Source of the DNA: an uncultured Gammaproteobacteria bacterium
GTDB lineage: Bacteria; Patescibacteriota; Patescibacteriia; UBA1558; GWA2-36-10
Assembly: GCA_964424615.1 (NCBI GenBank)
Contig: CAYRIU010000046.1
Location: forward strand, 525 to 64,524
Length of the DNA: 64,000 bases
Direction: 5' to 3'
The notes beneath the pieces are model-generated. The model was not told the origin of the DNA and ran no database searches. It was given only the letters and a program-made list of their open reading frames with translations. The position numbers and the translations under genes were made by a program. Shown in pieces: positions 7,285-54,026 of the stretch (position 1 is its first letter; every line of letters starts with the position of its first letter).

Positions 7285-8601
7285 TTAGTTAAACAAGGTG
7301 TAAAATAAACCTACAACTGCAGCGGTCATAAAAATAAATGTCAACCAAACTAAAAAGCGTGATAAAAAATTACCACTATAATTACCCAATATTTTTTTAC
7401 TGCCATTTATCTTGGCTACTACAAACAACAATGGTACTGCTGCTACACCATTAAATACTGCTGTAAATACCAAAGCTTTAAATGGATTAATGCCAATAAA
7501 ATTAATCAATAAACCAATAAAAGTAGAAGCGACAATCACGGCGTAGAAACCCTTGGCTTGACTAAATCTTCTATACAGGCCTTCTTTCCAGCCCATAGCC
7601 TCTGCCAAAGCATAGGCAGCTGAACCAGCTAAGACTGGAATACCTAGTAGACCCAAACCTATAATACCCACCGCAAAAATATCTTTGGCTATCTGTCCAG
7701 AATTGGGAAATGACTGTACTAATGGCTCTAGAGCCCTAGCAGCATCGGCAGCTGAGTTGATATCCGTGATACCATTTTTGAAAAATACGGAAGCTGCAGT
7801 AATGACTATAAACCACTGACCAATCTGTGACCACAGCATACCAACAGCCGTGTCTACTCTCATGTTGCGTAAAAATTTTTTCAAACCATGGGGCTTACCA
7901 CCTTTTTGTGGTAAATTGTGATGTTCTATCTCCTCTTCCACCTCTTCAGAAGCCTGCCAAAAAAACATGTATGGTGTGATAGTGGTACCAAATACACCAG
8001 TGATAATAAATAAATAATCAAAATTAAACTGTATATTCGGTACAAAAGTAGCTACCCATATTTCTGACCAAGAATGTTCTATGATCAAAGCAGTAAAAAT
8101 ATAAGCTACCAATATCATGGCCAACCATTTCAAAAATTTTACATATTTTTTGTAGCTGACAAAAACTTCTAACCAAACTATCAAAACTGAAAAAATAATA
8201 GCATAAAAAGCAAAAGGTAAATTCCAAACTAATTCTGCGGCCGACGCCATAGCACCTATGTCAGCTCCGATATTTATAGTATTAGCAATGACTACCAAAA
8301 ATACCACCGCTGATAATACTTTTTTGGAAAAATTTTCTTTGACCACTCCAGCTAGACCCTTGCCAGTCACTGCACCGATACGCGCACAAGTCTCTTGGAT
8401 AGCAATCAAAAGCGGTAGCTGATACAAAGAAGCCCACAACTGACCAAAACCAAATTGCGCACCAGTCTGTGAGTAGGTGGCAATACCAGACGGATCATCA
8501 TCAGCTGCACCAGTAATAAGGCCCGGACCCAAAATACGTAAAAAACGACCCATCTTAGTAGATCTTTTTTCATTTAAATTTTTTTCTTTATTTTTAGACA
8601 T
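7285..8601 (-). CDS. mntH: NRAMP-family divalent metal (Mn/Fe) transporter.
   Basis: GPG...DDPSGIATYSQTGAQFG motif region of Nramp; multi-pass membrane protein of 438 aa. Confidence 0.7.
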   Translation of the reverse strand: MSKNKEKNLNEKRSTKMGRFLRILGPGLITGAADDDPSGIATYSQTGAQFGFGQLWASLYQLPLLIAIQETCARIGAVTGKGLAGVVKENFSKKVLSAVVFLVVIANTINIGADIGAMASAAELVWNLPFAFYAIIFSVLIVWLEVFVSYKKYVKFLKWLAMILVAYIFTALIIEHSWSEIWVATFVPNIQFNFDYLFIITGVFGTTITPYMFFWQASEEVEEEIEHHNLPQKGGKPHGLKKFLRNMRVDTAVGMLWSQIGQWFIVITAASVFFKNGITDINSAADAARALEPLVQSFPNSGQIAKDIFAVGIIGLGLLGIPVLAGSAAYALAEAMGWKEGLYRRFSQAKGFYAVIVASTFIGLLINFIGINPFKALVFTAVFNGVAAVPLLFVVAKINGSKKILGNYSGNFLSRFLVWLTFIFMTAAVVGLFYTLFN

Positions 8602-9790: not shown

Positions 9791-9946
9791 AATTAATGTG
9801 ATATAAATTATCTTAATAATATTGTTTTTTTAGTGTATTGTAAAGTCAAATACTATACTTTATAATAACAAAGAGGATCAAAGCCCTTAGTTGTCTATAA
9901 ACTACCGAGCAAGTCGTCCATGTTCTACACAACCCAAGGAGAAAAA

Positions 9947-10129
9947 ATGCTACTGCGCATCACCACCCACAGCGATTTGCCTGTGTGCTACTTTCACAAC
10001 AACCGTGTCTATCAATACTATCTCAAGAAGGGCACTTATCTGTGCCGCAAAATCGTCCATCCTTTTGGAGGTGGATTCGATGACTTGATCGTGCTATACA
10101 AGATCCGTCTGCTAGCGACCCTGCACTAG
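9947..10129 (+). CDS. Hypothetical 60-aa protein in the GC-rich island.
   Basis: AAGGAG SD 6 nt upstream of the ATG at 9947; GC-rich codons; no recognisable family. Confidence 0.35.
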   Translation: MLLRITTHSDLPVCYFHNNRVYQYYLKKGTYLCRKIVHPFGGGFDDLIVLYKIRLLATLH

Positions 10130-10499
10130 CACCTGATGCTTTGATTGGCCTCAGCCACTCAGCATTGATGACGCATGCCCATCGCTACAGCCAGTTTCCC
10201 GACCAAACCGTTCACATCGAAGAAGTTGCTGATACTCTGATCGCAGAAGTTCTGCTTGCAGCGAGCTCGACAGCTGCGACCAAGCCAATCGGCAAAGTCA
10301 TCCCTATGCCTCTCAGGTCCACACCCAGATTCGCACAAGCCGGAAAAAGTATTCGCTACCAAATCAAAACCACCCAGGTGTCGACTAGACACCGCGTCCA
10401 GAGATTTCACCCAGCTGCCCGTCGAGCTTGCTGAGAAATATCAGTAGGCAAACTTCTCCTTGACCATGGCCACCGAGACTCACATCGGTGGCCCTTTCT

Positions 10500-10540
10500 T
10501 TTTCAAAAAAAGGAGACCATCCGTAGACGATCTCCTAAAA
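10500..10540 (-). terminator. Rho-independent terminator for the island gene at 10572..10946.
   Basis: Minus-strand reading GGAGATCGTCTACGGATGGTCTCC followed by TTTTTTT. Confidence 0.5.
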
Positions 10541-10571
10541 ACCAAGTTACCAAGCGAACTGATACCCTGTC

Positions 10572-10946
10572 CTAAGCTGTCTTAGCCACCAGCTCGGCAA
10601 TTGCCTGTCTAGCCACACCCTCCTTGGGCTCGATCCAAACTATGTCGCTCAGTGGCAATACCTTGAAGGTATCGTGACAACAGACGGCGATGGAGCCCCG
10701 GAATCCAGCGGCCTGCAAGGCTGCCAAAAATTTCTCACCAGTATTTGGCAAGAACCCAAAGCCACCGCCCAAGACAACCCAGTTGGGATTGATGCTGACA
10801 ATCCCGTCAACCAGAGAATCAAAATGCAGACTAAACTGCATCACCAAAAGGTGACACGGCATGACTGCTGGGTCTCCCACCTGGAGCAAAGACCGCATGT
10901 GCCTAGGATCTTTATCCAAGACAACCACGGTAGAACGAGTAGCCAT
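10572..10946 (-). CDS. Hypothetical 124-aa protein in the GC-rich island (MATRSTVVVLDKDPRH...).
   Basis: Perfect GGAGG SD 5 nt upstream of the ATG at 10946. The track ORF is longer only through a TTG start. A minus-strand terminator hairpin (GGAGA...TCTCC plus T7) follows at 10500-10540. Confidence 0.5.
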   Translation of the reverse strand: MATRSTVVVLDKDPRHMRSLLQVGDPAVMPCHLLVMQFSLHFDSLVDGIVSINPNWVVLGGGFGFLPNTGEKFLAALQAAGFRGSIAVCCHDTFKVLPLSDIVWIEPKEGVARQAIAELVAKTA

Positions 10947-11076
10947 TGGAACCTCCTGTGACAACAACTCAAACAGGTGACTCACACACTTGATAACTTG
11001 CGAAGGGAACAAAACAGACAATTATTCTAATAAAATAAATCCTGAAAGTCAATAGAAAAACAGCTTAAAAGCTGTC

Positions 11077-11142
11077 TTGGTGCCGAAGGGGAGATTTGCC
11101 ACCGCCCGCGGGCGGGGTCCCGCTCGTGGCGGGAAACTCCCC
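11077..11142 (-). repeat. Partial copy of the tRNA-Leu 3-prime end (T-arm plus CTTCGGCACCA) with a GC-rich double-hairpin element inserted in the T-loop.
   Basis: Reads GGGGAG-TT[TCCCGCCACGAGCGGGACCCCGCCCGCGGGCGGTGG]CAAATCTCCCCTTCGGCACCA, compared with the intact GGAGGTTCAAATCCTCTCTTCGGCACCA 15 nt upstream. Confidence 0.7.
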
Positions 11143-11153
11143 AAAATTATTAT

Positions 11154-11240
11154 TGGTGCCGAAGAGAGGATTTGAACCTCCACAGCCTCACGGCTACACG
11201 GCTCTGAACCGTGCGTGTCTACCAATTTCACCACTTCGGC
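11154..11240 (-). tRNA. tRNA-Leu (anticodon CAG), long variable arm; CCA encoded.
   Basis: Hand-folded: acceptor GCCGAAG/CTTCGGC, anticodon loop TTCAGAG, T-arm GGAGGTTCAAATCCTCT. Confidence 0.75.
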
Positions 11241-11357
11241 TAGTCTAAAATCTATATCATATTATTATATTTATGCCTTGCTGTCCATATAGCATCAAAT
11301 AAAAATAGCTCCATTTTTTGGAGCTATTATTTTAAACTAGTTGTACAAAAATTATAA

Positions 11358-12500
11358 TTATTTTTTTGACAAAATATCATGATACAAGTCTACCATCCTA
11401 TCAATCATATTATCGGCTTTGAACATGATGGCTGTCTGACGAGCCTTGAGAGCCATGGCGTTTCGTAAATCTGTATCATGTAGCAATAGATTTATCTTAT
11501 CCTCTGCTTCTGCTAGACTATGGACAATAAAACCATTTTCACCATCACGGATAATCTCAGGCGCCACGCCCACTGGATAGCTGATCGGTACTAGCTGCTG
11601 GGACATGAGCTCAATGAGACTCAGAGAAAAACCTTCATATCTAGACAACAACAAAGCGATGCTGCCAGCTTGCTTTTGCAAAATTGCCGGTATCGTATCT
11701 TTGGCGGCATTGTCTAGGACTACATGCTTATCTATATTATGTTGCAACCATGATACCAATTTTTTATTTCTAGACATCACTATTGATAGCTTGGGGACAT
11801 GAGGAAATTTACGCAAAAGATAAATAAGCCTATCTACACCCTTGAGCTTAAAAGTAAAAGCATCTTCACCCATCCTACCAAGAAAAATAATACTAGGTTC
11901 TTGGACTGGCACTCTATCCAAATCATCAAACCAGTAATCTTCAATGGCGTTGTGTATGATGGTAATTTTTTTAGGATCGACACCAGCACCCACTAGATCA
12001 TCTTTGACTATCTGCGAGGTAGCTATGATGTAGTCAACATGATCAGCAGCATATTTTTCAATAGAAAAAATATCATTCAATGGTCTGCGAGTCTGGATAT
12101 TCACCTCCTTGAGTACGGCGTCTTTTTGTAGCTGATACAATATGTCAGCACAACCCTCTTCTAAAAGAGAAGTCTTGGGCACGGCTCTCAAAAATCCAAT
12201 AGTAGTAGAACCAAAATGAGATACTATGGGTCTAGAAAATCTTAAAAAAGCTAATGGTGTATAGGTGGTGCCCTGAATAATATCACATTTCAAAAATTCG
12301 TCGCGCTTTTCTAATAATGAATAAAAAAATAAAATATTATTTATACCTTTAAAATGCACAGGAGCATCATTGAGCAAAAATTTGGGATAAAAATTGCGTA
12401 CATCGACATGACGACTACGCAATTTAGAAACAATTAAATCATTGATAATATTGGCTCCTGTGCCAATCTTTTTTTCATTATGTATAAAAGCAATTTTCAT
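11358..12500 (-). CDS. Family-1 (GT4-like) glycosyltransferase.
   Basis: 380 aa; C-terminal GT-B fold region with EGFSLSLIE...GENGFIV resembling the E-x7-E motif of GT4 enzymes. Confidence 0.65.
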   Translation of the reverse strand: MKIAFIHNEKKIGTGANIINDLIVSKLRSRHVDVRNFYPKFLLNDAPVHFKGINNILFFYSLLEKRDEFLKCDIIQGTTYTPLAFLRFSRPIVSHFGSTTIGFLRAVPKTSLLEEGCADILYQLQKDAVLKEVNIQTRRPLNDIFSIEKYAADHVDYIIATSQIVKDDLVGAGVDPKKITIIHNAIEDYWFDDLDRVPVQEPSIIFLGRMGEDAFTFKLKGVDRLIYLLRKFPHVPKLSIVMSRNKKLVSWLQHNIDKHVVLDNAAKDTIPAILQKQAGSIALLLSRYEGFSLSLIELMSQQLVPISYPVGVAPEIIRDGENGFIVHSLAEAEDKINLLLHDTDLRNAMALKARQTAIMFKADNMIDRMVDLYHDILSKK

Positions 12501-12530
12501 TTTTTCTACTTAATGATAAAAAATATCCAG

Positions 12531-13121
12531 CTACCTTCTTTTGCTCTCCAACCAATCTGGTACTGGAATAAAAGTAATATTTGGCCAAGCATCTACCTCA
12601 GCCTCACTCACATCATAATATGTTTGATAAGCATTTTCTACACTACCATGAATAGCTTTTGTCCAATCTAAACTAAGTTGCTTCGCTATTTTTTGTAAAA
12701 TTTCTTCGCTTTTTCCTTCTAATTCCACAAAAGTTGGCAGCCAAGGCCAGGTATCTATTGTCACCTCTACTCCCTCTAGATCCCACCTTTCTCTCTTTGT
12801 TTCTTGATAAGATTTATTTTCCAAACCTATAGTGGAAAGTAAACTACAAATTTTATCAAAATCTTCGACTATCAGGGAAAGCTCTTTAGTGCCATCTATA
12901 TTTCTATTTAGTAGTTGTTTATAAGCTAATGTGACTTTGTCACCTTCATCACGTACCCTGATCCAGCCACCAATTTTTTCTAAACGACTATCAGGATAGT
13001 CAAAATTTTTACGGCGCATCAATCTTTCTTCGTGAACCAAAACAGCGCCATTTTTTTTCAAAATATCTCTCAAGCCATCTGGATTAATATCCAAAAATTT
13101 TGCTTCAATTTCTACTTGCAT
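12531..13121 (-). CDS. CYTH-domain protein (triphosphate tunnel metalloenzyme, class IV adenylyl cyclase-like). Start taken at the internal Met (MQVEIEAKF).
   Basis: The hallmark ExExK motif (EIEAKF) is at the N-terminus. The track ORF extends upstream only through a GC-hairpin repeat, so the shorter start is preferred. Confidence 0.65.
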   Translation of the reverse strand: MQVEIEAKFLDINPDGLRDILKKNGAVLVHEERLMRRKNFDYPDSRLEKIGGWIRVRDEGDKVTLAYKQLLNRNIDGTKELSLIVEDFDKICSLLSTIGLENKSYQETKRERWDLEGVEVTIDTWPWLPTFVELEGKSEEILQKIAKQLSLDWTKAIHGSVENAYQTYYDVSEAEVDAWPNITFIPVPDWLESKRR

Positions 13122-13142
13122 AAAATTTACTTGGTCGACCGT

Positions 13143-13159
13143 GTCCCGCAACGCGGGAC
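13143..13159. repeat. GC-rich palindrome GTCCCGCAACGCGGGAC (single-hairpin member of the tRNA-associated GC element family).
   Basis: Perfect 17-nt palindrome in AT-rich context immediately downstream of tRNA-Ala. The same core recurs at 14128-14146. Confidence 0.6.
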
Positions 13160-13199
13160 GACCTCTTACAAAAATGCCAGGCACTCTCCCAATATTGTC

Positions 13200-13276
13200 T
13201 GGTGGACCAAGTGGGATTCGAACCCACTACCTCTGCAATGCGAATGCAGTGCTCTACCAAATTGAGCTATTGGCCC
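13200..13276 (-). tRNA. tRNA-Ala (anticodon CGC) with a G3:U70 identity pair; CCA encoded.
   Basis: Hand-folded: acceptor GGGCCAA/TTGGTCC with G3-T70, anticodon loop TTCGCAT, T-arm GTGGGTTCGAATCCCAC. Confidence 0.75.
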
Positions 13277-13287
13277 CTCAAATAAAA

Positions 13288-13355
13288 TTGGGCGAATGCA
13301 GCGCTCTAGCCTCCGCCTCCGCCAGTTGGCGGATGGCGGATGAGCTAACGGCCCC
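13288..13355 (-). pseudogene. Degenerate 5-prime-half copy of tRNA-Ala (acceptor, D-arm, anticodon stem) with a GC-rich palindrome inserted in the D-loop. The copy is truncated after the anticodon loop.
   Basis: Minus-strand reading GGGGCCGTTAGCTCA[TCCGCCATCCGCCAACTGGCGGAGGCGGAGG]CTAGAGCGCTGCATTCGCCCAA, compared with the intact GGGCCAATAGCTCAATTTGGTAGAGCACTGCATTCGCAT. Confidence 0.65.
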
Positions 13356-13362
13356 TCAAAAG

Positions 13363-13439
13363 TGGTCGGGGTGATCAGACTCGAACTGACGACCTCAGCG
13401 TCCCGAACGCTGCGCGCTAGCCAACTGCGCTACACCCCG
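13363..13439 (-). tRNA. tRNA-Pro (anticodon CGG); CCA encoded.
   Basis: Hand-folded: acceptor CGGGGTG/CACCCCG, anticodon loop TTCGGGA, T-arm GTCAGTTCGAGTCTGAT. Confidence 0.7.
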
Positions 13440-13520
13440 CCTAAGCCAATTGACGATGCATCTTACAACAAAACAACAAATTTGTAAACAAATTTATCAG
13501 CTAAAAAATTTATTTTAATT

Positions 13521-13982
13521 TTATTTGTTTAGAAAAAAATTTGCCAACACTTGAAAAGTCAGTATCTTTGACATGAATAAAGCGCCCAAAACAATCAACA
13601 CTGCTCCAAAGGCAGCGCTCCATGTAAATTTTTCTCCCAAAAAAATAACAGCCAACACAAAAACGAAAACTATACTCAAGCGATCAATAGCCGAAGCCGT
13701 AGAAGCCTGACCTTTTTGAATGGCATAAAAATAAAACAACCAAGACAGTGCTCCTGCCACACCGCTCAAAATAATAAATAATAAAGCCTTACCTTCTATA
13801 GTATGTAGCAGTGAAGTTTTTTTCAAAGATACTGACACCAAGACCAAAAAAATAGCCATAACCACCGAACGAACAGTGGTAGCCAAGGTACTGTCAATAT
13901 TTTTTAAACCAATTTTACCAAAAATAGCAACTAATGCTGCAAAGATAGCTGAAAATAAAGCATAAATAATCCACAGTGGCAT
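13521..13982 (-). CDS. Small EamA-like (DMT family) membrane protein. Start taken at the internal Met (MPLWIIY), because the upstream extension overlaps tRNA-Gly.
   Basis: About 150 aa with 4-5 TM helices. The track ORF N-terminus runs through the tRNA-Gly gene and is therefore implausible. Confidence 0.5.
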   Translation of the reverse strand: MPLWIIYALFSAIFAALVAIFGKIGLKNIDSTLATTVRSVVMAIFLVLVSVSLKKTSLLHTIEGKALLFIILSGVAGALSWLFYFYAIQKGQASTASAIDRLSIVFVFVLAVIFLGEKFTWSAAFGAVLIVLGALFMSKILTFQVLANFFLNK

Positions 13983-14008
13983 AAATTTAATATTAATTTT
14001 TATATTAC

Positions 14009-14084
14009 TGGAGCGGGCAACCGGATTCGAACCGGCGATCTCTTGCTTGGGAAGCAAGCATTCTACCAACTGAACTATACCCGC
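14009..14084 (-). tRNA. tRNA-Gly (anticodon CCC); CCA encoded.
   Basis: Hand-folded: acceptor GCGGGTA/TGCCCGC, anticodon loop TTCCCAA, T-arm GCCGGTTCGAATCCGGT. Confidence 0.75.
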
Positions 14085-14114
14085 CTAAATCTTTTTTTAA
14101 TACACTGAAATTAT

Positions 14115-14231
14115 ACGGGTGGCGGGCAATCCCGCAACGCGGGACGATCTCTTGCTTGGCCCCGCCACGCGGGGTACCAACTGCCACCGCCACGGGCGGG
14201 GTCCCGCCAACGGCGGGAAACTATACCCGCC
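14115..14231 (-). pseudogene. Degenerate tRNA-Gly copy carrying three GC-rich hairpin insertions (one double-hairpin element in the D-loop plus two single hairpins). The anticodon arm and T-arm are lost.
   Basis: Minus-strand reading GGCGGGTATAGTT[TCCCGCCGTTGGCGGGACCCCGCCCGTGGCGGTGG]CAGTTGGTA[CCCCGCGTGGCGGGGC]CAAGCAAGAGATC[GTCCCGCGTTGCGGGAT]TGCCCGCCACC, compared with the intact tRNA-Gly 30 nt away. Confidence 0.7.
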
Positions 14232-14238
14232 TCAAAAA

Positions 14239-16827
14239 TCACGCTGCTTTGACGGTAATTTTTTTATTTGAATGTGCGCTAATATCAAAATCATATTTTT
14301 TGTAAAACAAACGCTTGCCAATCTCGATAAACATAAAATAAACAAAGACAATCAAGAAAATCGCCAAGACCATATATAGAGGTGGACGACCAAATTGGAA
14401 ATACTCACCTATCGCTGTGTATGGTATGATCCAGCCCAAAGCTACGCAAGTAAAAGTACTAAACAACAAATATTTACTAGGCCTACTCTGAATAAATGGT
14501 AATTTTTTGGTCCTGATAAAATGAATCACCAAAGTCTGAGTAGCTATAGACTCCATGAACCAACCCGCCTGAAACACTGACTGACTAGCATGAAAAACAC
14601 TATACAAAATATAAAAGGTTGTAAAGTCAAACAAGGAGCTAATCGGTCCAATCCACAACATAAAACGCTTGATAAACTGCATATTCCAACGCCTGGGTTT
14701 TTGTAGCCAATCCAGGTCAACATTGTCAGTCGGTATAGTCACCTGAGAAAAGTCATAAATAAAATTATTAAGCAAAATCTGTATAGGCAACATCGGCAAA
14801 AACGGTATAAAAAATACTACCAAAGTCATGCTGACCATATTGCCAAAATTTGAACTCAGACCCATCATGACATACTTCATGGTGTTGCCAAAAGATTTTC
14901 TACCTTCTAGCAAGCCCTCTTTCAAAATTTCCAAATTTTTGTGAGTCAAGACGATATCCGCTGACTCTTTGGCTACATCGACAGCATTGTCTACCGAGAT
15001 CCCAACGTCAGCTGCCTTGAGCGAAGGAGCGTCATTGATACCATCACCCAAGTAGCCCACCACATGACCATTGGCTCGCAGAGCATTGATCACTCTATTT
15101 TTTTGCTCCGGTGAAAAACGAGCAAAAATAGTAGTCTTCTCTACCATCACTGCCAAAGCATCATCAGTCAGATGCTCTACTTCGCTACCCATGATAGTAC
15201 CTTGGATCACCAAGCCGACTTCACGACAAATTTTGTTAGCCACTAGCTCATTGTCTCCGGTGATGACCTTCACTCGCACACCGACATTTCTCAAGTCTTC
15301 CAAAACTTGCTTTAAGCCTTTGCGTGGTGGATCAAGAAAAGCCACAAAACCACAAAGCTCTAGATCATTTTCATCCTGCTTGGTGTAGGATCTTTTTTTA
15401 CCAACAATTTTCTTGGTAGCGACAGCCAAAACACGATAGCCATCCCTACTCAAGCTCTCATAATACTCATGTGCTTTTTTGTGCCAAACTTTTCCAAATT
15501 TGGAAATCTTTTTGCCCTGTCTGAAGGTCTGACATTTTTTGAAGATCTCCTCTGGAGCACCCTTGGTGATCAACACTCTACCCTCTGCTCCCTCGACTAC
15601 GATACTCATCAAACGCCTGTTAAAATCAAATGGTATTTCGTCAATTTTTTTGTAGTGAGTGAGGGATATTTTTTTGAAATTAATAATAGCTGCGTCTAAG
15701 GGATTTTTTACACCAGTCTGAAAAAATCCATTGAGATAAGTATATTTGAAAACCTGCTCGTCATTTTCTCCTAGCAAGTTTGTATAGGTGACCAAAACTA
15801 TCTTGTCCTCGGTCAGTGTACCGGTCTTATCCGTACACAAAATATCCATACTACCAAAATTTGGAATGGCGGCTAATTTTTTGACTATCACTCCTTTTTT
15901 GGACATGCGTAGAGAGCCACGAGCCATAGTGATAGACATGATCATGGGTAGCAGCTCTGGCGTCACACCGACAGCCACTGCAATAGCAAACATAAAAGAA
16001 TCCAGAATCTGATGATTGATAAGAGAGTTAAATAAAAATATAAAAAGTACTAAAAAGAAGATTATCTTCATCACAAAATAACCAAAACGTGAAACACCAA
16101 TTTCAAATTCACTTTTTTCTTCTTTTTTGACTAGCTTGTTGGCTATCTGACCAAATTGAGTTTGGTTGCCAATCTTCAAAACTACAGCCGTAGCCGAACC
16201 GCTGACTACACTGGTGCCGGCAAATATAATATTACTCAAATCCACCAAAGGTATATCTTGGCCACGCAAACGCTTGGTATCTTTGGCATTGGGATATGAC
16301 TCACCAGTGAGAGCAGATTGATTGACATAAAAATCTTTGGCTTCGATAATGCGTGCATCAGCTGGCACTAGATTGCCGGCACTGATACTGATGACATCTC
16401 CTACACAAATACGAGAAGCTTTTACTTCTTTTTTCTGACCATCGCGTATGACTGTGGCCATAGTGCGAACTTTTTCTTTGAGGCGCTTGGCCGCTTGGCC
16501 AGCATTACGCTCTTCAAAAAAATCCAAAACCACACTCAAGAGTACCATGATAAATACAATGATAGCATTGCGCATCTCCCCAAAATAAGCAGAAATAGCG
16601 GTCACTATCAATAATATGATCACTAGAGGACTTTTGAAATATGAGAGAAATTCCAATACTACATTGAGCTCCTTTTTTTCTTCTATAGTATTGTAGCCAC
16701 AGATAGCGTGTCTTTTTTGAGCCGAACTATCTGATAAACCTTTGGCACTACTTTCTAATAATGAAAAAATATCGGCTATATCAAGCGTAGCAAAATATTC
16801 TAGCTTTTTATCTAATATATCTTTCAT
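14239..16827 (-). CDS. mgtA: Mg2+-importing P-type ATPase (MgtA-type). Start taken at the internal Met, because the track's 28-aa N-terminal extension overlaps the tRNA-Ile fragment.
   Basis: DKTGTLT phosphorylation motif, TGDN, GDGINDAPSLKAADVGI, 10 TM segments. Confidence 0.85.
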   Translation of the reverse strand: MKDILDKKLEYFATLDIADIFSLLESSAKGLSDSSAQKRHAICGYNTIEEKKELNVVLEFLSYFKSPLVIILLIVTAISAYFGEMRNAIIVFIMVLLSVVLDFFEERNAGQAAKRLKEKVRTMATVIRDGQKKEVKASRICVGDVISISAGNLVPADARIIEAKDFYVNQSALTGESYPNAKDTKRLRGQDIPLVDLSNIIFAGTSVVSGSATAVVLKIGNQTQFGQIANKLVKKEEKSEFEIGVSRFGYFVMKIIFFLVLFIFLFNSLINHQILDSFMFAIAVAVGVTPELLPMIMSITMARGSLRMSKKGVIVKKLAAIPNFGSMDILCTDKTGTLTEDKIVLVTYTNLLGENDEQVFKYTYLNGFFQTGVKNPLDAAIINFKKISLTHYKKIDEIPFDFNRRLMSIVVEGAEGRVLITKGAPEEIFKKCQTFRQGKKISKFGKVWHKKAHEYYESLSRDGYRVLAVATKKIVGKKRSYTKQDENDLELCGFVAFLDPPRKGLKQVLEDLRNVGVRVKVITGDNELVANKICREVGLVIQGTIMGSEVEHLTDDALAVMVEKTTIFARFSPEQKNRVINALRANGHVVGYLGDGINDAPSLKAADVGISVDNAVDVAKESADIVLTHKNLEILKEGLLEGRKSFGNTMKYVMMGLSSNFGNMVSMTLVVFFIPFLPMLPIQILLNNFIYDFSQVTIPTDNVDLDWLQKPRRWNMQFIKRFMLWIGPISSLFDFTTFYILYSVFHASQSVFQAGWFMESIATQTLVIHFIRTKKLPFIQSRPSKYLLFSTFTCVALGWIIPYTAIGEYFQFGRPPLYMVLAIFLIVFVYFMFIEIGKRLFYKKYDFDISAHSNKKITVKAA

Positions 16828-16901
16828 AACTAAAATAATTTTAGCATATTTCAGCAAAACAAAAAAACTGCCGAAGCAGTCTTGTTCTCTACTCAATGAA
16901 A

Positions 16902-16978
16902 TGGTGGGCATAGATTTTTGATACTTGCCACCGCGTAGCGGGGTCCCGCTCTGCGGGAAACCATCGACCCCGACTTTA
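16902..16978 (-). pseudogene. Degenerate 3-prime-half copy of tRNA-Ile (anticodon loop to CCA) with a GC-rich double-hairpin element replacing the T-loop.
   Basis: Minus-strand reading TAAAGTCGGGGTCGATGG-TT[TCCCGCAGAGCGGGACCCCGCTACGCGGTGG]CAAGTATCAAAAATCTATGCCCACCA, compared with the intact ...GTCGGGGTCGATGGTTCAAGTCCATCTATGCCCACCA. Confidence 0.7.
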
Positions 16979-17025
16979 CCTGCCCGCCGAACTAAGCACC
17001 TAAATCATATTATAAGATAAAAGTA

Positions 17026-17102
17026 TGGTGGGCATAGATGGACTTGAACCATCGACCCCGACTTTATAAGAGTCGTGCTCTAACCGACTGAGCTATATGC
17101 CC
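17026..17102 (-). tRNA. tRNA with anticodon UAU, probably tRNA-Ile reading AUA; CCA encoded.
   Basis: Hand-folded: acceptor GGGCATA/TATGCCC, anticodon loop CTTATAA, T-arm GATGGTTCAAGTCCATC. Confidence 0.6.
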
Positions 17103-23270: not shown

Positions 23271-23421
23271 GGACGAAAGACGCCGAATGTTTCTATCGTC
23301 ATTGCGAGCGAACGCAGTGAGCGCGGCAATCTACCAACTTATAGATTGCTTCGTCTCCGCCATCCGCCCACTGGCGGAGGCGGATCCTCGCAATGACGGT
23401 AAATAGACTAGGCGTCTTTCC
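23271..23421. repeat. About 150-nt nested inverted-repeat structure. Outer stem GGACGAAAGACGCC/GGCGTCTTTCC, inner stem CGTCATTGCGAG/CTCGCAATGACG, and an embedded GC palindrome CTCCGCCATCCGCCCACTGGCGGAGGCGGAT. Candidate structured RNA or complex MITE.
   Basis: The stems were found by eye. The embedded palindrome is one mismatch different from the element inserted in the tRNA-Ala pseudo-copy (13311-13340). Confidence 0.5.
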
Positions 23422-24494: not shown

Positions 24495-25067
24495 ATGTTA
24501 ATACCTACAGTAATAGAAAAAGTCCAAGGTGGCGAAAGAGCTTATGATATCTACTCTCGCCTCTTGAAAGATCGCATCATATTTTTGGGTGATGCTATCG
24601 ATGATCATATTGCCAACCTAGTAATTGCTCAGCTACTTTTCCTCGATGCTCAGGACAATACTCGCCCAATCAAGATGTATATCAATTCACCTGGTGGCTC
24701 AGTCACTGATGGCCTGGCTATCTATGACACTATGCAGCATATCAAGAGTCCAGTCTCTACTATCGCTGTGGGGCTAGCTGCTTCTATGGGCGCCTTGCTG
24801 CTATCTGGTGGCGCCAAGGGTCAGAGATTTGCTTTGCCCAACTCCGAGATACTCCTACACCAAGTCATGGGCGGCGCCCAAGGCCAAGCATCGGATATCA
24901 AAATCAAAGCAGAACAAATTTTGAAGCTCAAAGATAGACTCAACCAAATCTTACACAAACACACTGGACAGCCATTGAAAAAAATAGAAGTCGATACTGA
25001 TCGCGACTACTACATGACTCCCGATGAAGCCAAAAATTATGGCGTCATTGATAAGATCATAAAATGA
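24495..25067 (+). CDS. clpP: ATP-dependent Clp protease proteolytic subunit.
   Basis: 190 aa; [19 protein letters not shown], catalytic Ser in the GLAASMGA context, His/Asp present. Confidence 0.9.
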
Positions 25068-25091
25068 GGTTCAAATAAAACTTAAAAAATT

Positions 25092-25116
25092 CATCCGCCT
25101 TTGGCGGATATTTTAT
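25092..25116 (+). terminator. Rho-independent terminator after clpP (CATCCGCCTTTGGCGGATATTTTAT).
   Basis: CCGCC-N3-GGCGG palindrome plus T-run. Confidence 0.55.
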
Positions 25117-25379
25117 CCACAACAAAGAGATTATTCACTTTTGAAATTATTTGTGCTATTATTTTTCACAAGGTGAGTTTTGAGGATCAAAACATCCTCA
25201 TTTCTAAATTCTCATCCCTAAGACCATCGGTGTATAGCACCATTCATAGCCGAAAGACTTTGGACAATGCTATGCTTAAGCCGATGGTCTTTGTTTTGAA
25301 ATAAAAAAAGAGCGGCGCCTCCTACACCGAAGTGTAATGGATGGCGCCGCTTCTGGTCAGCCAGTAGCAGTGTGTGCTA

Positions 25380-25940
25380 CTAGCTGATCAACTTGCGCTT
25401 GGCGATGATGTTGTGTTCACCGCGAAACTCGAAGACCACTGCCTCCAGAATGTCCAGGGTATGGACATCGCGAAGACCGCAGAGATACGCGGCCAGAATG
25501 ATGAAGGAGCTGTGAAAGACACCAACTCCCATCTCGCCGTCCTCCATGCAGGAGAACATCTGGTGAATGGCCCCCATGGCCTCGACTTCGAAGACGTGCT
25601 GTGCATCGCAGTCGTGAGAAGCCGTGAAAGCCTCCATGACCGAAACGCCGCCAGCGATCAGATCTTCGAACTTCTCGTTGTGCAAGTGCATCAGGGCAGC
25701 ATCGCTACCCAAGCCATCGATCACGGGATGACGACAGCTCTGCGAGAAGGCCGGATTCTCGACCACCATGACCGCAGCTGTCTCGATAGTCGCCACCAGA
25801 GGCGACGTGAAAATGTGCTGCACCATCTGGTTGCGATGATGGAAGGCTCCAAAGCCATGAGCCATATCCAGGCCCATGGTGGAAATGTGCCGACCGTCCT
25901 CAGCCAGCTCGGAGTGAACGTGCAGAGTCAAGATTTTCAC
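25380..25940 (-). CDS. Hypothetical His-rich (putative metal-binding) 186-aa protein in a GC-rich cassette. GTG start with a GGAGGA SD.
   Basis: SD 5 nt upstream of the GTG start. A minus-strand terminator (AGCGGCGCC...GGCGCCGCT plus T-run) lies at 25306-25360. The overlapping plus-strand ORF 25374..25985 is judged an artefact of the high GC content. Confidence 0.45.
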   Translation of the reverse strand: MKILTLHVHSELAEDGRHISTMGLDMAHGFGAFHHRNQMVQHIFTSPLVATIETAAVMVVENPAFSQSCRHPVIDGLGSDAALMHLHNEKFEDLIAGGVSVMEAFTASHDCDAQHVFEVEAMGAIHQMFSCMEDGEMGVGVFHSSFIILAAYLCGLRDVHTLDILEAVVFEFRGEHNIIAKRKLIS

Positions 25941-26069
25941 AGAAATCCTCCGTGTTTACTGTCCATGCCCACCCTAGATTACTAGGGATCCAAGTCGTCA
26001 ATGACTCAGAATTGAGTATTATATGACATTTATGCTATTTTGTCAATACTAGAATTCAAACTCCCTTGA

Positions 26070-40396: not shown

Positions 40397-41215
40397 ATGG
40401 AAAAAAATTCTTTAGCTAAATACAAATTATATTTAAAAAGTAAAGACTTGAAGCCCAGCACCATCAAAAATTATAGCTGGCATGTGGGGCAATTTTTGCT
40501 ATGGTCTGAAAATAAGTCCGCCAGAGGCGGGTCCGCCTCTGGCGGAAAAATAACCGCTCCCCTTTTAAAAAAATATAAAGAATTTTTACTAGCCAAACAA
40601 AAAAATATTGGTAGTATCAATCTACGCCTTATCATCATAAATAACTACCTACACTTTATTGGTATCAGATACTCTTTTGAGCTCCTGACTGAGCACAAAG
40701 ATAGACTAGCTGCTCTCACACCTTTGCAATTACAAAATTTTTTGGACCAACCCTTGAAAAAAAATAACCCTGTTGGTCACAGAGACAAAGCTTTATTAGA
40801 AATTTTATATGCTAGCGGTCTCAAGGTCAGCGACCTAGTCAATCTCCAAAAAAACCAAGTTGATTTTTTGAGTCGCGAAATAATACTAGACAAAAAACAC
40901 ATTACTCTACCACCCTATGCTCTGCACTATCTAGAAAAATATATTAATTTCAGAAAAGATAAAAGTCCTTGGCTATTTATAAACTTTGATCGCAGTAAAA
41001 AAGCTGGCGAAAAACCACTTTCTGTCCGCTCAGTCGAAAGAATGGTAGAAAAATATGCCTTGGCACTACGACCAAGACTAAAAATCACTCCCCAAATACT
41101 GCGCAACACCCTAGCCTACAATCTCAAAAGCCAAGGCGTGACTGGCTCTGGACTCAAAGAAGCTCTACACTTCAAAACAAAAGTAGGCGCCGGTAATTAT
41201 CTAAACAGATTATAA
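40397..41215 (+). CDS. Tyrosine site-specific recombinase (XerC/XerD/integrase family), with a GC-palindrome-encoded insertion SARGGSASGG in the N-terminal domain.
   Basis: Core-binding-like N-terminus; GLKVSDLVNLQ patch; C-terminal R...LRNT...H...Y arrangement. 272 aa. Confidence 0.65.
   Translation: MEKNSLAKYKLYLKSKDLKPSTIKNYSWHVGQFLLWSENKSARGGSASGGKITAPLLKKYKEFLLAKQKNIGSINLRLIIINNYLHFIGIRYSFELLTEHKDRLAALTPLQLQNFLDQPLKKNNPVGHRDKALLEILYASGLKVSDLVNLQKNQVDFLSREIILDKKHITLPPYALHYLEKYINFRKDKSPWLFINFDRSKKAGEKPLSVRSVERMVEKYALALRPRLKITPQILRNTLAYNLKSQGVTGSGLKEALHFKTKVGAGNYLNRL
40517..40546 (+). repeat. Perfect 14-bp-stem GC palindrome (TCCGCCAGAGGCGG-GT-CCGCCTCTGGCGGA) inserted in frame within the recombinase ORF.
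   Basis: Self-complementary 30-mer of the CCGCCA-N-TGGCGG family. It encodes SARGGSASGG without breaking the frame. Confidence 0.65.
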
Positions 41216-43085: not shown

Positions 43086-44855
43086 CTATGAAATAAATCC
43101 ACCAACCTGCTTGGACCACAAGCGCTTATAAAAACCATTGCGAGCCAATAATTCTTGATGTGTGCCCTGCTCTACTATCTGGCCACCCTCTATGACCACT
43201 ATCCTATCCATTTTCATTATAGTAGATAGACGATGAGCAATGACAATCACTGTCTTATTCTTCATGAGATTGGCTAGGGCTTTTTGAATCAACTCTTCAG
43301 ACTCAGAGTCTAGGCTGCTTGTTGCTTCATCCAACACCAAAATTGGTGCATTTTTGATGATAGCTCTTGCTATAGCTATACGCTGTCTTTCACCACCAGA
43401 AAGACGGACTCCTCGTTCACCCACAAAAGTATCATAGCCCTCAGTGAAGCCTTTGATAAACTCATGGCAATGGGCCATCTTGGCTGCTTTGACCACTTGA
43501 TCCTGACTAGAGCCCCAAAGACCATAGGCAATATTTTCACTCAAAGTCCTATGAAACAAAATCGGGTCTTGATTGACCAAGGCAATGTTGGACCAGAGAC
43601 TTTCCTGAGTAACGCGACTTATATTTTGTCCATCGATAGCGATCTGCCCATCACTCAAATCGTGCTGTCTCAGTAAAATACTAGCAATAGTAGATTTACC
43701 ACCACCAGATGGACCGACTATGGCTACTTTTTCTTTTGGCTGAATAGCCAGATTCAAGTCTTTGATGATTTGCCTAGTTTGATTGTAGCTAAAGCTGACT
43801 GCAGAAAATTCTATCTGACCAGCTGTCACTTTTAGTTGCTTAGCTTTTGGCATATCGACAATATCATGAGGAGTTTCCAAAACCTCGGTCATCTCTTGAG
43901 CATCGGCCATAGCTTCATAGTAGTATCTGATGATACGACCGAAATCCCACAAACGATCAAACATATTAATCAAATAAGTTTGGATCAAGACAAAGTCACC
44001 AATGGTCACCAAACCTAATCGCCATAGATGCAGAGCATAAAACATCAGGCCGATTTCCAAGCCAATCATCATCAATGTCTGAACAGATTCAAAATAATTG
44101 GTCAGGTTCCAAGAAAAATTACGTGCTGCTTGAAGCTGGCTAGTTATTTTACGAAAGGCATTATTTTCTCTATTATAGCCGTTGAACAATTTTATATTGA
44201 GCTGATTAGTAATCGTATCAGCCAAAGCACCACTCACTTTAGAATCAAGCTCACTACGCCTAATGTCATATTTTAATTTATAACGACTAAAAACAAAATT
44301 AATAACACAAAATATTATTACCCACAATAACACAGCCATACCTACTAAGATATTACGTCTTGATAAAACGTAAACTATCAGGGAAACATTTATCACTATA
44401 GGTATTAGGTTCCAAGCAAAGACATCCATGATGGAGCCAAAAGAATAAACAAAACGATTTACTTTTTTGACTAGTGAGCCGGCAAAATTATTATTAAAAA
44501 AAGAAACCGAATGTTTATGCAGATAGGCAAAGCAATGATTAAATAAATCCGCCATCACGTGTGTCTGGGCATGACTAGCTGTAAAACTCAAAACCCGCCA
44601 ACATACCCAAGAAAGTAGCTCAAGAACCAAAATCACTAATAATACTTCTGTAAATTGTCCGGAGCTAGCTGCCTCTCCACTCTTGGTCAACAAATCAAAG
44701 AATTTTTTGTAATAAATGGGCACTGCCACCCGCGCCGCTGAAGCCAAAATAATAAAAATCAAGATAACTAAAAAAGAAATACGGTATTTCTTTGCGTATT
44801 GAAAATAATAAGAAAAAGTCTGTTTAGTAAAAGTTTTATTTTTTGTGTCTGCCAT
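43086..44855 (-). CDS. ABC exporter, fused permease-ATPase (MsbA-like).
   Basis: 6 TM plus NBD with Walker A GPSGGGKST, signature LSGGERQRIAIARA, Walker B ILVLDEATS. Confidence 0.85.
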   Translation of the reverse strand: MADTKNKTFTKQTFSYYFQYAKKYRISFLVILIFIILASAARVAVPIYYKKFFDLLTKSGEAASSGQFTEVLLVILVLELLSWVCWRVLSFTASHAQTHVMADLFNHCFAYLHKHSVSFFNNNFAGSLVKKVNRFVYSFGSIMDVFAWNLIPIVINVSLIVYVLSRRNILVGMAVLLWVIIFCVINFVFSRYKLKYDIRRSELDSKVSGALADTITNQLNIKLFNGYNRENNAFRKITSQLQAARNFSWNLTNYFESVQTLMMIGLEIGLMFYALHLWRLGLVTIGDFVLIQTYLINMFDRLWDFGRIIRYYYEAMADAQEMTEVLETPHDIVDMPKAKQLKVTAGQIEFSAVSFSYNQTRQIIKDLNLAIQPKEKVAIVGPSGGGKSTIASILLRQHDLSDGQIAIDGQNISRVTQESLWSNIALVNQDPILFHRTLSENIAYGLWGSSQDQVVKAAKMAHCHEFIKGFTEGYDTFVGERGVRLSGGERQRIAIARAIIKNAPILVLDEATSSLDSESEELIQKALANLMKNKTVIVIAHRLSTIMKMDRIVVIEGGQIVEQGTHQELLARNGFYKRLWSKQVGGFIS

Positions 44856-52961: not shown

Positions 52962-54026
52962 ATGGCTAACTCCGAAGAAATCATGCTGCTCTGCGGCGGT
53001 GGTGATACTAATCACCTGGCTCAAAAAATCATCGAAGTAGTCAACAACCGACGCATCGGCCAAAGAGAACTCAAGCTCTCACACACTGACTTCGGCTGGT
53101 TTGCCGACGAAGAACCAGATCATGCCTTTGACGAATGGGACAAAATTCGTAACAAGCATATCGTTTTGTTCTTGAGCACACACAGCCCAGAACTAGCCAT
53201 GGAGCTCTTGATCCTCATCCGAGCGATCAAAAAAAGATACGGTGCCAAGAGCCTGACCGTGGTCCAGCCCTTCATGGCTTTCCGACGCCAAGACCACCCA
53301 GAGATCAAAGAAGAGTTTGACATGAACCTCTGGTTCATTGAGAACTTGAAAGCCAATGGCGCTGACCGTGTCATACTCTGCGACATTCACTCCGAGCAGA
53401 CGCTAAAAAACTGCGTTGAAGTCGGCCTAGAAGCTCACCACGTCAAACCTACTCCACTCTACGCTGCTGCCCTGAAAGAACCAATTGCTCAGGCCAAGGA
53501 GCTCGGTAAGCATACCAAGATCCTGTCGCCAGACAAGGGTTCTCTACTTCGTGCTATTGCTCTAGCCAAGATCCTCAGTGTGCCGGTGTTGCTATCTCTC
53601 AAAAAAAGAAGCGAGACCGGCAACATTGTCACCAATGTCCCACCGACACCGTCCGATCTCGAGCTGATCGCAGCTATGGAGCAAAAGCACGGTATCAAGA
53701 TCGAGCTCATGAGTGAAGAAATGGTCCGAGATGCCCACATCATCATCCGTGAGGATGAGCTCGACACTGGCGGCACCGCAGCTGACACCTGTCGTGATCT
53801 GCTCCGTGCTGGAGCCTACCAAGGCATCTTGGTCGTGACACACATGAAGTGCTCTCCAGGCTGGAAACGCAAGGTCGGTCGTCGCCGGACCAGTCCTTTC
53901 ACTAGAGTAATTGCCGGTGATACCATCAATCGCTCTTACGAAGACCAGACCGGTGGTCTGGTGGTCAATGTCAGTGTGGCACCAGTCATTGCCGAGAAGT
54001 TGACCGAAATCCTAGACGCCCTGTGA
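52962..54026 (+). CDS. Divergent ribose-phosphate pyrophosphokinase (PRPP synthetase, Prs) family protein in a GC-rich cassette.
   Basis: DIHSEQ matches Prs DLHAEQ. REDELDTGGT matches VDDMIDTGGT. LAQKI is the N-terminal motif. About 50% GC, strong SD, own terminator. Confidence 0.55.
   Translation: MANSEEIMLLCGGGDTNHLAQKIIEVVNNRRIGQRELKLSHTDFGWFADEEPDHAFDEWDKIRNKHIVLFLSTHSPELAMELLILIRAIKKRYGAKSLTVVQPFMAFRRQDHPEIKEEFDMNLWFIENLKANGADRVILCDIHSEQTLKNCVEVGLEAHHVKPTPLYAAALKEPIAQAKELGKHTKILSPDKGSLLRAIALAKILSVPVLLSLKKRSETGNIVTNVPPTPSDLELIAAMEQKHGIKIELMSEEMVRDAHIIIREDELDTGGTAADTCRDLLRAGAYQGILVVTHMKCSPGWKRKVGRRRTSPFTRVIAGDTINRSYEDQTGGLVVNVSVAPVIAEKLTEILDAL

Follow-up and report, generated by a model that had tools for sequence, protein, structure and literature searches.

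The window, which is the whole 64-kb stretch of DNA analysed here (38% GC) and supplies the coordinates used throughout, carries six tRNA genes predicted with ARAGORN, each on the minus strand. Local alignment of every tRNA with its own flanks reveals that four of them, tRNA-Leu(CAG), tRNA-Ala(CGC), tRNA-Gly(CCC) and tRNA-Ile(UAU), are accompanied by a partial copy within 100 nt. Each copy bears one or more GC-rich hairpins in a loop, and a gap of 11–35 nt separates the fragment from the intact gene (Table 1). A first-pass annotation of the sequence had described four such tRNAs with interrupted copies, and the recomputed alignments reproduce this arrangement. The IF-2 protein encoded in the window is nearest to proteins of Patescibacteria, Nomurabacteria and Parcubacteria (67–72% identity), which identifies the window as part of a Patescibacteria genome. 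Relatives are labelled L001 and so forth.

Three of the inserted elements share the form T-CCCGC..GCGGG-A-CCCCGC..GCGG-TGG, hereafter double hairpin E. Each E is located at TT^CA, in the T loop of the Leu and Ile copies and in the D loop of the Gly copy. Both the common architecture and the TT^CA context stand as first annotated, and the Gly element, which had been described as reversed, has the same orientation relative to its tRNA copy as the other two. The pattern CCCGC-N3-8-GCGGG occurs six times in the 64 kb against an expectation of 0.04, and all six occurrences belong to the four tRNA-copy loci. Four of the seven GC-rich segments in the whole window are found at these loci as well, the double hairpins exceeding 79% GC.

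The Ala fragment represents an allele that differs from the adjacent intact gene, and its D loop holds a 29-nt class-2 hairpin. A single further copy of this hairpin exists in all DNA that was fetched, close to position 23355 where the first-pass annotation had placed it. The two single hairpins reported for the Gly copy are indeed present, but they are not simple insertions; one stands in for the T arm and the other for part of the anticodon arm. An arm replacement like that by CCCCGCGTGGCGGGG is seen in six of 45 upstream copies elsewhere, and the hairpin replacing the T arm is identical to the GTCCCGCGTTGCGGGAC hairpin situated 1 kb away, downstream of tRNA-Ala. The Ile fragment includes a 20-nt exact match to tRNA-Ile. 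Sequence 5' of this fragment, which the annotation may have read as additional tRNA, is a separate GC junction motif of the CCTGCCCGCC type. This motif directly adjoins the anticodon-loop breakpoints of tRNA fragments in the window (16979–16989), L070 (6508), L074 (7098), L208 (5246) and L209. At the Leu locus, the hairpin lying beyond the fragment is terminator-like, and tRNA-Leu and fragment therefore probably form one transcript.

Searching the fragments and hairpins against Rfam returned standard tRNAs only, with no family at the gathering threshold or at E ≤ 1. Since, in addition, every fragment is accompanied by an intact gene with the same anticodon, group I introns and split or permuted tRNA genes were ruled out.

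Allele exchange at orthologous loci

Syntenic relatives (L001, L002, L070, L208/L209 and L210) were reached via homologues of the neighbouring ATPase and of IF-2. Their nucleotide identity to the window is 73–81% where measured (L001, L002 and L070). An assembly artefact was rejected, as the same architecture is present in NCBI, ENA, JGI and Logan assemblies.

In comparison with L070, the T arms of tRNA-Leu are swapped. The window combines an intact GGAGG/CCTCT gene with a GGGAG/CTCCC fragment, whereas the intact gene of L070 has GGGAG/CTCCC and its fragment reads ..CAAATCCTCTCTTCGGCACCA-ATAA, that is, the 3' end of the window's intact gene plus the ATAA downstream of it. The Ala fragment of the window matches the intact tRNA-Ala of L208 at 14/14 and 20/20 positions, with the hairpin standing in place of the D-loop GTT. 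At the Ile locus two alleles alternate, N1 with the acceptor GGGCATA and N2 with CGTCCCG, and the locus has five states in six relatives. L002 carries N1; in the window N1 is followed by a 3' piece of allele 1, and in L070 the 3' piece of allele 1 follows N2. In L001 a 5' piece of allele 2 precedes a gene for a small GIY-YIG protein (see below) and N2. The same order with N1 instead of N2 is found in L210, and in L208 it is extended by a 3' piece of allele 2.

L208 also shows resident genes that are interrupted by inserted DNA. Here the 5' and 3' pieces of a tRNA-Gly, when joined, give a perfect ARAGORN tRNA-Gly(CCC), which is split by an insert of ~170 nt containing another tRNA-Gly(CCC) allele, and the healed Ile pieces yield tRNA-Ile(UAU). 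Nuclease gene and E hairpin are both missing from the Gly insert, whose ends are of the CCTGCCCGCC type. An imperfect inverse of CCTGCCCGCC at its other end makes the insert look like a mini-cassette with terminal inverted repeats that carries a tRNA but no nuclease or E.

The first-pass annotation had pointed to sister genomes as a source of empty orthologous sites, and such sites are seen in L002 (Ile, Gly) and L003 (Leu). In L002 a window-type tRNA-Ile is directly followed by a terminator, and nothing lies upstream of tRNA-Gly. L003 carries the tRNA-Leu allele of the window (96.6% identity) without an adjoining fragment. The Gly copy has an orthologue in L001, in which the 3' part is decayed, and a shorter version in L070, reduced to 12 nt, E and 7 nt; L002 has none. 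Judged by these sequences, the partial copies appear to result from the insertion of a second copy of the same isoacceptor in or beside the resident gene, and not from local duplication and decay.

A further arrangement was noticed on the minus strand of L208 (1620–1835), where two tandem units, each composed of a 12-nt tRNA-Ala 5' piece, a hairpin and a spacer of ~75 nt, precede an intact tRNA-Ala. Fragments can therefore be amplified in tandem.

A dispersed family of double hairpins

An exact-pattern scan covering one genome per species detected E at at least 119 loci, nearly all of them in Patescibacteria and distributed over many classes; the family figures given here rest on the matches listed. 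Hairpins were assessed by regular expressions, GC scans and direct pair counts. The mobile-like mini-element suggested by the first-pass annotation is hence a genuine dispersed family present in many Patescibacteria lineages. Two matches in Streptomyces, at 75% GC, are best read as chance, and the pattern has no match in 2.9 million viral contigs. Among the matches listed, contigs titled 'uncultured Gammaproteobacteria' or 'Bdellovibrionales' (L070 and about 15 others) were also noticed to carry the double hairpin. Given the synteny of L070 with the Patescibacteria window (~80% identity), some of these taxon names, at the least, seem to be placeholders.

The element is 31–37 nt long and occurs with 107 distinct loop combinations, while the stems are invariant except for the seventh pair of the first hairpin. 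This pair covaries (C-G 38, T-A 12, A-T 6), being of the Watson-Crick type in 56 of 68 cases compared to 30.3 ± 3.3 after shuffling. A bias towards lengths that keep a reading frame was rejected, multiples of three not being in excess.

E targets TT^C(N)A sites, often in hairpin loops, with the T-loop sequence TTCRA of tRNA as the archetype. In 120 non-redundant copies the flanks are conserved at T(−1) in 97%, T(−3) in 82%, T(−4) in 62%, C(+1) in 75% and A(+3) in 61%. Heptad repeats such as (TTTCAAA)n contain an extra T where E is inserted, indicating that the inserted unit starts with T and enters between T and C. A flanking stem of at least 4 bp surrounds 49 of the 120 copies (re-paired controls: mean 19.1, maximum 30), and the elements thus tend to sit in the loops of existing hairpins. 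After removal of the element the flanks match tRNA in 41/120 copies, 31 of them across the junction, compared to 32/595 for random positions of the same loci. The enrichment at tRNA loci and TT^CA contexts, on which the proposal of the first-pass annotation hinged, is thereby upheld. Targeting specific to tRNA is not, because about two thirds of the copies reside in AT-rich repeats, other hairpins or coding-like sequence. Among the matches listed, none of 129 healed sites gives an intact tRNA in ARAGORN; intron status, or insertion in a gene that is otherwise live, is therefore ruled out for the hairpins.

Copies are mostly single. Rare doublets are direct tandems (L055, L122) or direct repeats that flank a cassette (L051, L033). 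In L208 (~8015–8053, minus strand) the T-loop site of an Ile fragment holds a nested 'twin', in which one E is inserted in the first-hairpin loop of another. Different hairpins can also occupy one site, as the TT^CAAGT site that contains E in the window Ile fragment is filled with other hairpins in L070 and L208.

Together with other short GC palindromes, the double hairpin forms a dispersed family with the behaviour of mobile DNA. The second class-2 hairpin of the window is inserted in a GTCATTGCGAG..CTCGCAATGAC repeat, copies of which in L005 and L053 do not have those 29 nt, so that the window copy alone has the insertion. As a separate observation, the surrounding 130 nt (23283–23412), a member of this repeat family, form a very stable structure (z = −7.7). 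A perfect 30-nt palindrome, TCCGCCAGAGGCGGGTCCGCCTCTGGCGGA, is located in frame in an open reading frame (ORF) of the Phage_integrase family (40397–41215, plus strand) and adds the residues SARGGSASGG to its N-terminal SAM-like domain. Palindromes of this type are likewise found in the T loop of the L070 Ile fragment and at a D-loop-like site in L049. A seemingly separate, structured GC-rich repeat linked to tRNA genes was noticed directly after the tRNA CCA, with the order TTCGAYTC, hairpin, CTCACTCATGGTC ... GACCAT ... GAATCGAA; it is present in L003 (2014–2110 and 2242–2340), in L070 (2548–2600) and after tRNA-Met in L008.

A small GIY-YIG gene between piece and tRNA

In the relatives L001, L070 and L208–L210 an ORF of ~80 codons with a GIY-YIG domain (Pfam 5e-14 and 1.7e-17) is present, situated between the 5' piece and the intact tRNA. 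The proteins comprise 79–88 amino acids, of which residues 1–68 form the catalytic domain, and lack an attached DNA-binding domain. Their nearest solved relatives are the single-domain UPF0213 proteins BH0048 (1e-15) and EF2693, followed by the structure-specific endonuclease SLX1 (1e-5); I-TevI is more distant (5e-3). Among the matches listed, 21 loci found by their hairpin have such a gene. The order is nearly always a hairpin-bearing 5' piece, the GIY-YIG gene and the intact tRNA, at times followed by a hairpin-bearing 3' piece.

To remove the ascertainment bias of loci found by their hairpin, 80 metagenome loci were picked by the GIY-YIG protein alone, using a six-sequence alignment. These loci are the best matches to a query of the Ser-GGA type rather than a random sample of the family, and the following figures describe this subfamily. 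A tRNA on the same strand starts between −38 and +69 nt from the ORF end at 64 of the 80 loci. At 51 of the 80 the first 14 nt of the downstream tRNA occur a second time, no further than 230 nt upstream of the ATG and with no more than 3 mismatches (mostly none), and a perfect GC hairpin accompanies the repeat in 48 of these 51 cases. The non-redundant upstream copies number 45. Insertions of at least 12 nt are found in 39 of them. The D arm is affected in 31, typically behind nucleotide 14, and the anticodon loop in 15 (35/36). In at least five of the remaining six a GC hairpin visibly takes the place of an arm, just as it does in the window's Gly copy. Homology to the tRNA stops at a median of 9 nt past the last insertion (4–21 nt in 38 of 39), which is about where the hairpin-holding arm closes.

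The host tRNAs in this sample are those for Ser (four anticodons), Tyr, Pro, Thr, Glu, Gly, Cys and Asp. The suggestion of the first-pass annotation that all hosts have a C34 anticodon fails already within the window, where tRNA-Ile has U34, and elsewhere hosts such as Ser-GGA, Ser-UGA, Ser-GCU, Tyr-GUA, Pro-UGG, Thr, Glu and Asp were encountered. Viral contigs contain just four remote GIY-YIG relatives, and together with the missing viral hairpin matches this does not support a phage vector. Many of the GIY-YIG ORFs (L127–L135, L039, L118 and others) were seen to stop at the TAG of GCATAGTGG in the D arm of the downstream tRNA, the ORF ending at tRNA start + 14. With the stop codon inside the tRNA, 5' processing of the tRNA would remove it from the mRNA.

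Table 1. Positions of the tRNA genes, partial copies and GC-rich hairpins in the window.
Feature	Position	Strand	Basis and remarks
Intact tRNA-Leu(CAG), T-arm allele GGAGG/CCTCT	11154–11240	−	ARAGORN; Rfam tRNA 53.8 bits
Displaced 3' tRNA-Leu fragment (T arm, acceptor 3' strand, CCA), allele GGGAG/CTCCC	11078–11142	−	Alignment; 11 nt downstream of gene
Double hairpin E, T-CCCGCCACGAGCGGG-A-CCCCGCCCGCGGGCGG-TGG, at TT^CAAAT in T loop of Leu fragment	11099–11134	−	
Hairpin and T-run, ACAGCTTTTAAGCTGTTTTT, after Leu fragment	11057–11079	−	Terminator-like; read from sequence
Intact tRNA-Ala(CGC)	13200–13276	−	ARAGORN, Rfam
Displaced 5' tRNA-Ala fragment (acceptor 5' strand, D arm, anticodon stem 5' strand and loop to CGC)	13290–13355	−	Alignment; upstream of gene
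Class-2 hairpin, TCCGCCATCCGCCAACTGGCGGAGGCGGA, in D loop of Ala fragment	13312–13340	−	29 nt
Single hairpin, GTCCCGCGTTGCGGGAC	13143–13159	−	Downstream of tRNA-Ala, before CYTH gene
Intact tRNA-Gly(CCC)	14009–14084	−	ARAGORN, Rfam
Full-length degenerate tRNA-Gly copy	14118–14231	−	Alignment; upstream of gene; acceptor-closed multi-hairpin fold, z = −4.8
Double hairpin E at GTT^CAGTTGG in D loop of Gly copy	14184–14218	−	
Single hairpin, CCCCGCGTGGCGGGG, in Gly copy	14160–14174	−	In place of D-stem 3' strand and 5' part of anticodon arm
Single hairpin, TCCCGCGTTGCGGGA, in Gly copy	14130–14144	−	In place of T arm
Intact tRNA-Ile(UAU), allele 1, acceptor GGGCATA	17026–17102	−	ARAGORN, Rfam; identical to L002 tRNA-Ile
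Displaced 3' tRNA-Ile fragment (anticodon loop to CCA)	16902–16978	−	Alignment; downstream of gene; E in T loop, T-stem 3' strand decayed
Double hairpin E, T-CCCGCAGAGCGGG-A-CCCCGCTACGCGG-TGG, at TT^CAAGT in T loop of Ile fragment	16928–16958	−	
GC junction motif, CCTGCCCGCCG	16979–16989	+	Adjoins anticodon-loop breakpoint of Ile fragment
Second class-2 hairpin copy, in GTCATTGCGAG..CTCGCAATGAC repeat	23356–23384	+	
GC palindrome, TCCGCCAGAGGCGGGTCCGCCTCTGGCGGA, in tyrosine-recombinase ORF	40517–40546	+	30 nt, perfect, in frame

The ORFs neighbouring the tRNA loci of the window encode a glycosyltransferase, a CYTH protein, an EamA protein and a P-type ATPase. Between the terminator-like hairpin of the Leu fragment and tRNA-Ser extends an island of 51% GC (~9830–11020), the ORFs of which have no Pfam match. 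By eye, similar sequence seemingly follows the Leu fragment of L070, where blastn gives no match at E<1e-20, and L003 has a different GC-rich island beside its tRNA-Leu. Further GC-rich stretches of the window are located at 25001–26000 and 53001–54000 (49–52% GC per kb) and in a short segment at 44717–44741.

Probable replacement of resident tRNA genes

We consider it likely that the degenerate copies are displaced pieces of former resident tRNA genes, and that the tRNA gene at such loci has repeatedly been replaced by an incoming copy of the same isoacceptor. This reading builds on the architecture and its frequency, on the allele swaps, empty sites and split resident genes, and on the target preference of the hairpins. 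The window contains four scars (Leu, Ala, Gly, Ile) and no nuclease gene, which is why the replacement cassette was not visible to the first-pass annotation. Its alternative of site-specific integration holds in so far as the copies are footprints, but they would be footprints of tRNA replacement by a tiny cassette and not of an integrase-borne island.

In the proposed course of events an incoming tRNA would land in or beside the resident gene on a very small cassette, the inserts being 0.1–0.4 kb in size. In relatives the putative cassette usually also encodes the 80-residue GIY-YIG protein of the UPF0213/SLX1 type, immediately upstream of the new tRNA. What is left of the old gene would be a 5' piece on the upstream side, a 3' piece on the downstream side, or both, each with one complete hairpin-tagged arm. 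The replacement probably spreads between genomes by homology-dependent repair in a homing-like manner, as bases next to the allele are carried along with it and the two kinds of piece offer homology. The bare SLX1-like catalytic domain suggests recognition of structure instead of sequence. With a GC double hairpin at its tip, a tRNA arm would form a stable branched extrusion, and the predicted nuclease could cut at the base of the hairpin-bearing arm. Such a cut would cause homology, and thus the pieces, to end just beyond the tagged arm, which in turn would make the hairpin part of the mechanism and not a later squatter. That the hairpin is a mechanistic partner of the nuclease is put forward here as a tentative idea. 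Similarly speculative, and in our judgement rather doubtful, is the wider proposal that the GC double hairpins and the 80-residue GIY-YIG protein constitute one unrecognised bacterial mobile system, which lodges in a tRNA loop, cuts, and has the cassette tRNA installed by repair. By disabling a resident essential gene and supplying the only working copy, such an element would be hard to lose and would represent a gene drive with built-in addiction.

Several findings weigh against this reading or parts of it. A tblastn search with the L001 protein detects no GIY-YIG ORF in the window, and involvement of the nuclease at the four window loci hence rests on the relatives. Some replacements, such as the Gly insert of L208, have neither the nuclease gene nor E, so neither feature is obligatory. 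The 80 loci picked by protein reflect one subfamily. About two thirds of the E copies are neither in tRNA-derived sequence nor near a GIY-YIG gene, and E may spread independently. The occurrence of different hairpins at one Ile T-loop site fits repeated independent insertion in a dead fragment equally well. Moreover, the 5' Gly copy and the intact gene share lineage-specific acceptor changes in three genomes (GCGGGTA, GCGGGCA and GCGAGTG). Simple decay of a scar does not predict these changes, which suggest ongoing conversion or repeated re-creation of the copy. Finally, the intact incoming tRNA keeps the loop sequences of the tagged fragment, yet its escape from cutting is left unexplained by a homing model.

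In the main alternative, which corresponds to the leading idea of the first-pass annotation, the GC hairpins could be autonomous mini-elements, mobilised in trans and inserting at TT^C(N)A, whereas the tRNA fragments would be of unrelated origin. Fragments would collect hairpins as perfect and harmless targets, with T, D and anticodon loops all available, while insertion in a live tRNA gene would be lethal. The absence of E from otherwise intact tRNAs agrees with this, as do the location of most E copies outside tRNA sequence with an unchanged flank logo, the different hairpin types at one TT^CAAGT site in the window, L070 and L208, and the nested copies. So do the class-2 hairpin in an unrelated repeat, the palindrome inside an ORF and the one replacement that has no hairpin. 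Autonomous insertion does not predict, however, that an insertion should be present in 39 of 45 short 5' copies, which often comprise only 20–45 nt of tRNA, and a replaced arm in at least five of the other six, nor that homology ends at a median of 9 nt past the last insertion, whichever loop is concerned. With seven GC-rich segments in 64 kb, occupancy of four fragments by chance is very unlikely unless the insertion rate is extreme or the processes are coupled. On balance this explanation appears improbable, though it deserves to be taken seriously.

The 3' ends of tRNA genes are the commonest att sites of integrative elements, and the copies might accordingly be attL/attR-type duplications left by islands or prophages, with the hairpins as unrelated decoration. 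An island of about 1.2 kb and 51% GC just past the Leu fragment, as well as a tyrosine-recombinase gene in the window (40397–41215), would be in line with such an origin. However, the short gap between fragment and intact gene contains no island, and the recombinase is 23 kb away, with none adjacent. Two of the four copies, moreover, are 5' or full-length copies lying upstream, which att duplications do not yield, and in relatives the DNA between fragment and gene is the GIY-YIG ORF or another tRNA. We therefore regard integrase footprints as scarcely credible. The pieces might instead be selected structured RNAs, such as leaders by which the tRNA or nuclease mRNA transcribed with them would be stabilised or regulated, decoys for factors that bind or cleave tRNA, or processing signals. 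They lie inside tRNA transcription units, in the case of the Leu fragment before a terminator-like hairpin, and the hairpin stems covary. The Gly copy adopts an acceptor-closed multi-hairpin fold (z = −4.8) and its acceptor 5' strand tracks the intact gene in three genomes, and a leader of this kind precedes almost every GIY-YIG gene of the sampled subfamily. On the other hand, Rfam contains no matching family even at E ≤ 1, the pieces are missing at orthologous sites of L002 and L003, the Gly copy is shortened in L070 and decayed at its 3' part in L001, and the T stem of the Ile fragment is decayed. The folds of the Leu and Ile fragments are unexceptional (z about −1.7), and stems of a DNA hairpin that an enzyme recognises would be expected to covary just as much. 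A functional RNA is thus a very unlikely explanation, and replacement of resident tRNA genes is retained as the preferred one.

Free-standing GIY-YIG genes have precedents in SegB of phage T4, which belongs to a tRNA gene cluster (PMC2330249), and in fungal mitochondrial ORFs that are associated with partial duplications of neighbouring genes (PMC5626475, PMC7902536). As in these homing genes, the gene discussed here is directly beside its associated gene, its presence varies among close relatives, the resident is partly duplicated and displaced, and an intact, often foreign allele is supplied; SegB, too, is located in a tRNA region. The mobile ORF of Allomyces atp6 is a further example of a free-standing GIY-YIG gene that bears a copy of its target. 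Two marks by which GIY-YIG homing is judged are found in the present material, namely presence/absence polymorphism and co-conversion of flanking markers (Ile locus; Leu T arms with their downstream bases). In contrast to I-TevI and the Seg proteins, which have a sequence-specific DNA-binding domain, the protein is a bare UPF0213/SLX1 domain of ~80 amino acids. Its host is a bacterial chromosome and not a phage or organelle, and viral contigs are almost devoid of it. Many tRNA species show one and the same architecture, in which a GC hairpin in a tRNA loop systematically marks the displaced piece.

With respect to the hairpins, Paquin, Laforest and Lang reportedly described GC-rich double-hairpin elements (DHEs) of Allomyces mitochondrial DNA in 2000. 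The GC clusters of yeast mitochondria are short GC-rich elements as well (PMC4478555). E resembles both in being a GC-rich element of about 30–80 nt in an AT-rich genome, with two stem-loops, variable loops and conserved stems. Nested 'twins', presence that varies among relatives, and tolerance in intergenic DNA and in variable parts of structured RNAs are also shared. Unlike DHEs, E is bacterial and has the flank consensus TT(W)T-E-C(N)A, and a third of its copies occupy tRNA-derived sequence at the breakpoints of replacement. The likeness is one of architecture only. Repetitive extragenic palindromic (REP) and REPIN elements, which are linked to the RAYT transposase (PMC3116915), are comparable as dispersed intergenic short palindromes with covarying stems and a possible pairing with a small nuclease gene flanked by hairpins. 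Here, however, the associated gene is of the GIY-YIG type, the elements are single double hairpins of 31–37 nt rather than inverted doublets, and association with tRNA fragments is no feature of REP sequences. No RAYT gene (IS200/IS605 TnpA-like) was noticed beside the mapped hairpins, the ORFs of the window not having been scanned exhaustively.

Rickettsia palindromic elements (RPEs) measure about 100–150 bp and are not GC-rich double hairpins. We know of no nuclease or tRNA-replacement context for RPEs. The likeness consists in palindromic repeats of a reduced genome that are found inside genes, including an ORF in frame (40517–40546) and RNA genes. Integration islands at tRNA genes, and the disruption of archaeal tRNA genes by mobile elements, for which models exist (PMC3293823), share with the present loci that tRNA is targeted by mobile DNA, that the incoming DNA restores an intact tRNA, and that a partial copy is left. 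They differ in that our loci have no integrase, inserts of 0.1–0.4 kb instead of kilobases, both 5' and 3' pieces, breakpoints in any of the three loops, and hairpin tags. Hairpin-tagged tRNA fragments or units of GIY-YIG gene and tRNA in Patescibacteria were not found described in the literature, and a paper on group I introns in Patescibacteria tRNAs (PMC13011429) makes no mention of either. The widespread tRNA-replacement process that the related genomes suggest is thus apparently undescribed so far.

These observations concern the genomes of ultra-small bacteria in several respects. In Patescibacteria, the annotation of tRNA genes, phylogenetic markers based on tRNA and the assembly of metagenome-assembled genomes (MAGs) can all be confused by such fragments and hairpins, and past gene flow could be traced with the fragments as lineage markers. 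The double hairpin represents a bacterial counterpart of the fungal mitochondrial double-hairpin elements, and the mobility of both could become tractable together. If the nuclease takes the part proposed here, a first biological role would be assigned to the widespread UPF0213/YhbQ family, and small UPF0213/SLX1-like GIY-YIG proteins would gain a role that can be tested.

Few cellular genes are usually regarded as more stable or more consistently inherited by vertical descent than those for tRNA. It seems that incoming copies repeatedly overwrite them in these ultra-small bacteria and leave a readable, hairpin-tagged trail. Should the proposed mechanism be true, a gene drive would be serially overwriting tRNA genes across Patescibacteria, and replacing an essential gene while destroying its old copy would be a distinct persistence strategy for selfish DNA in minimal genomes.

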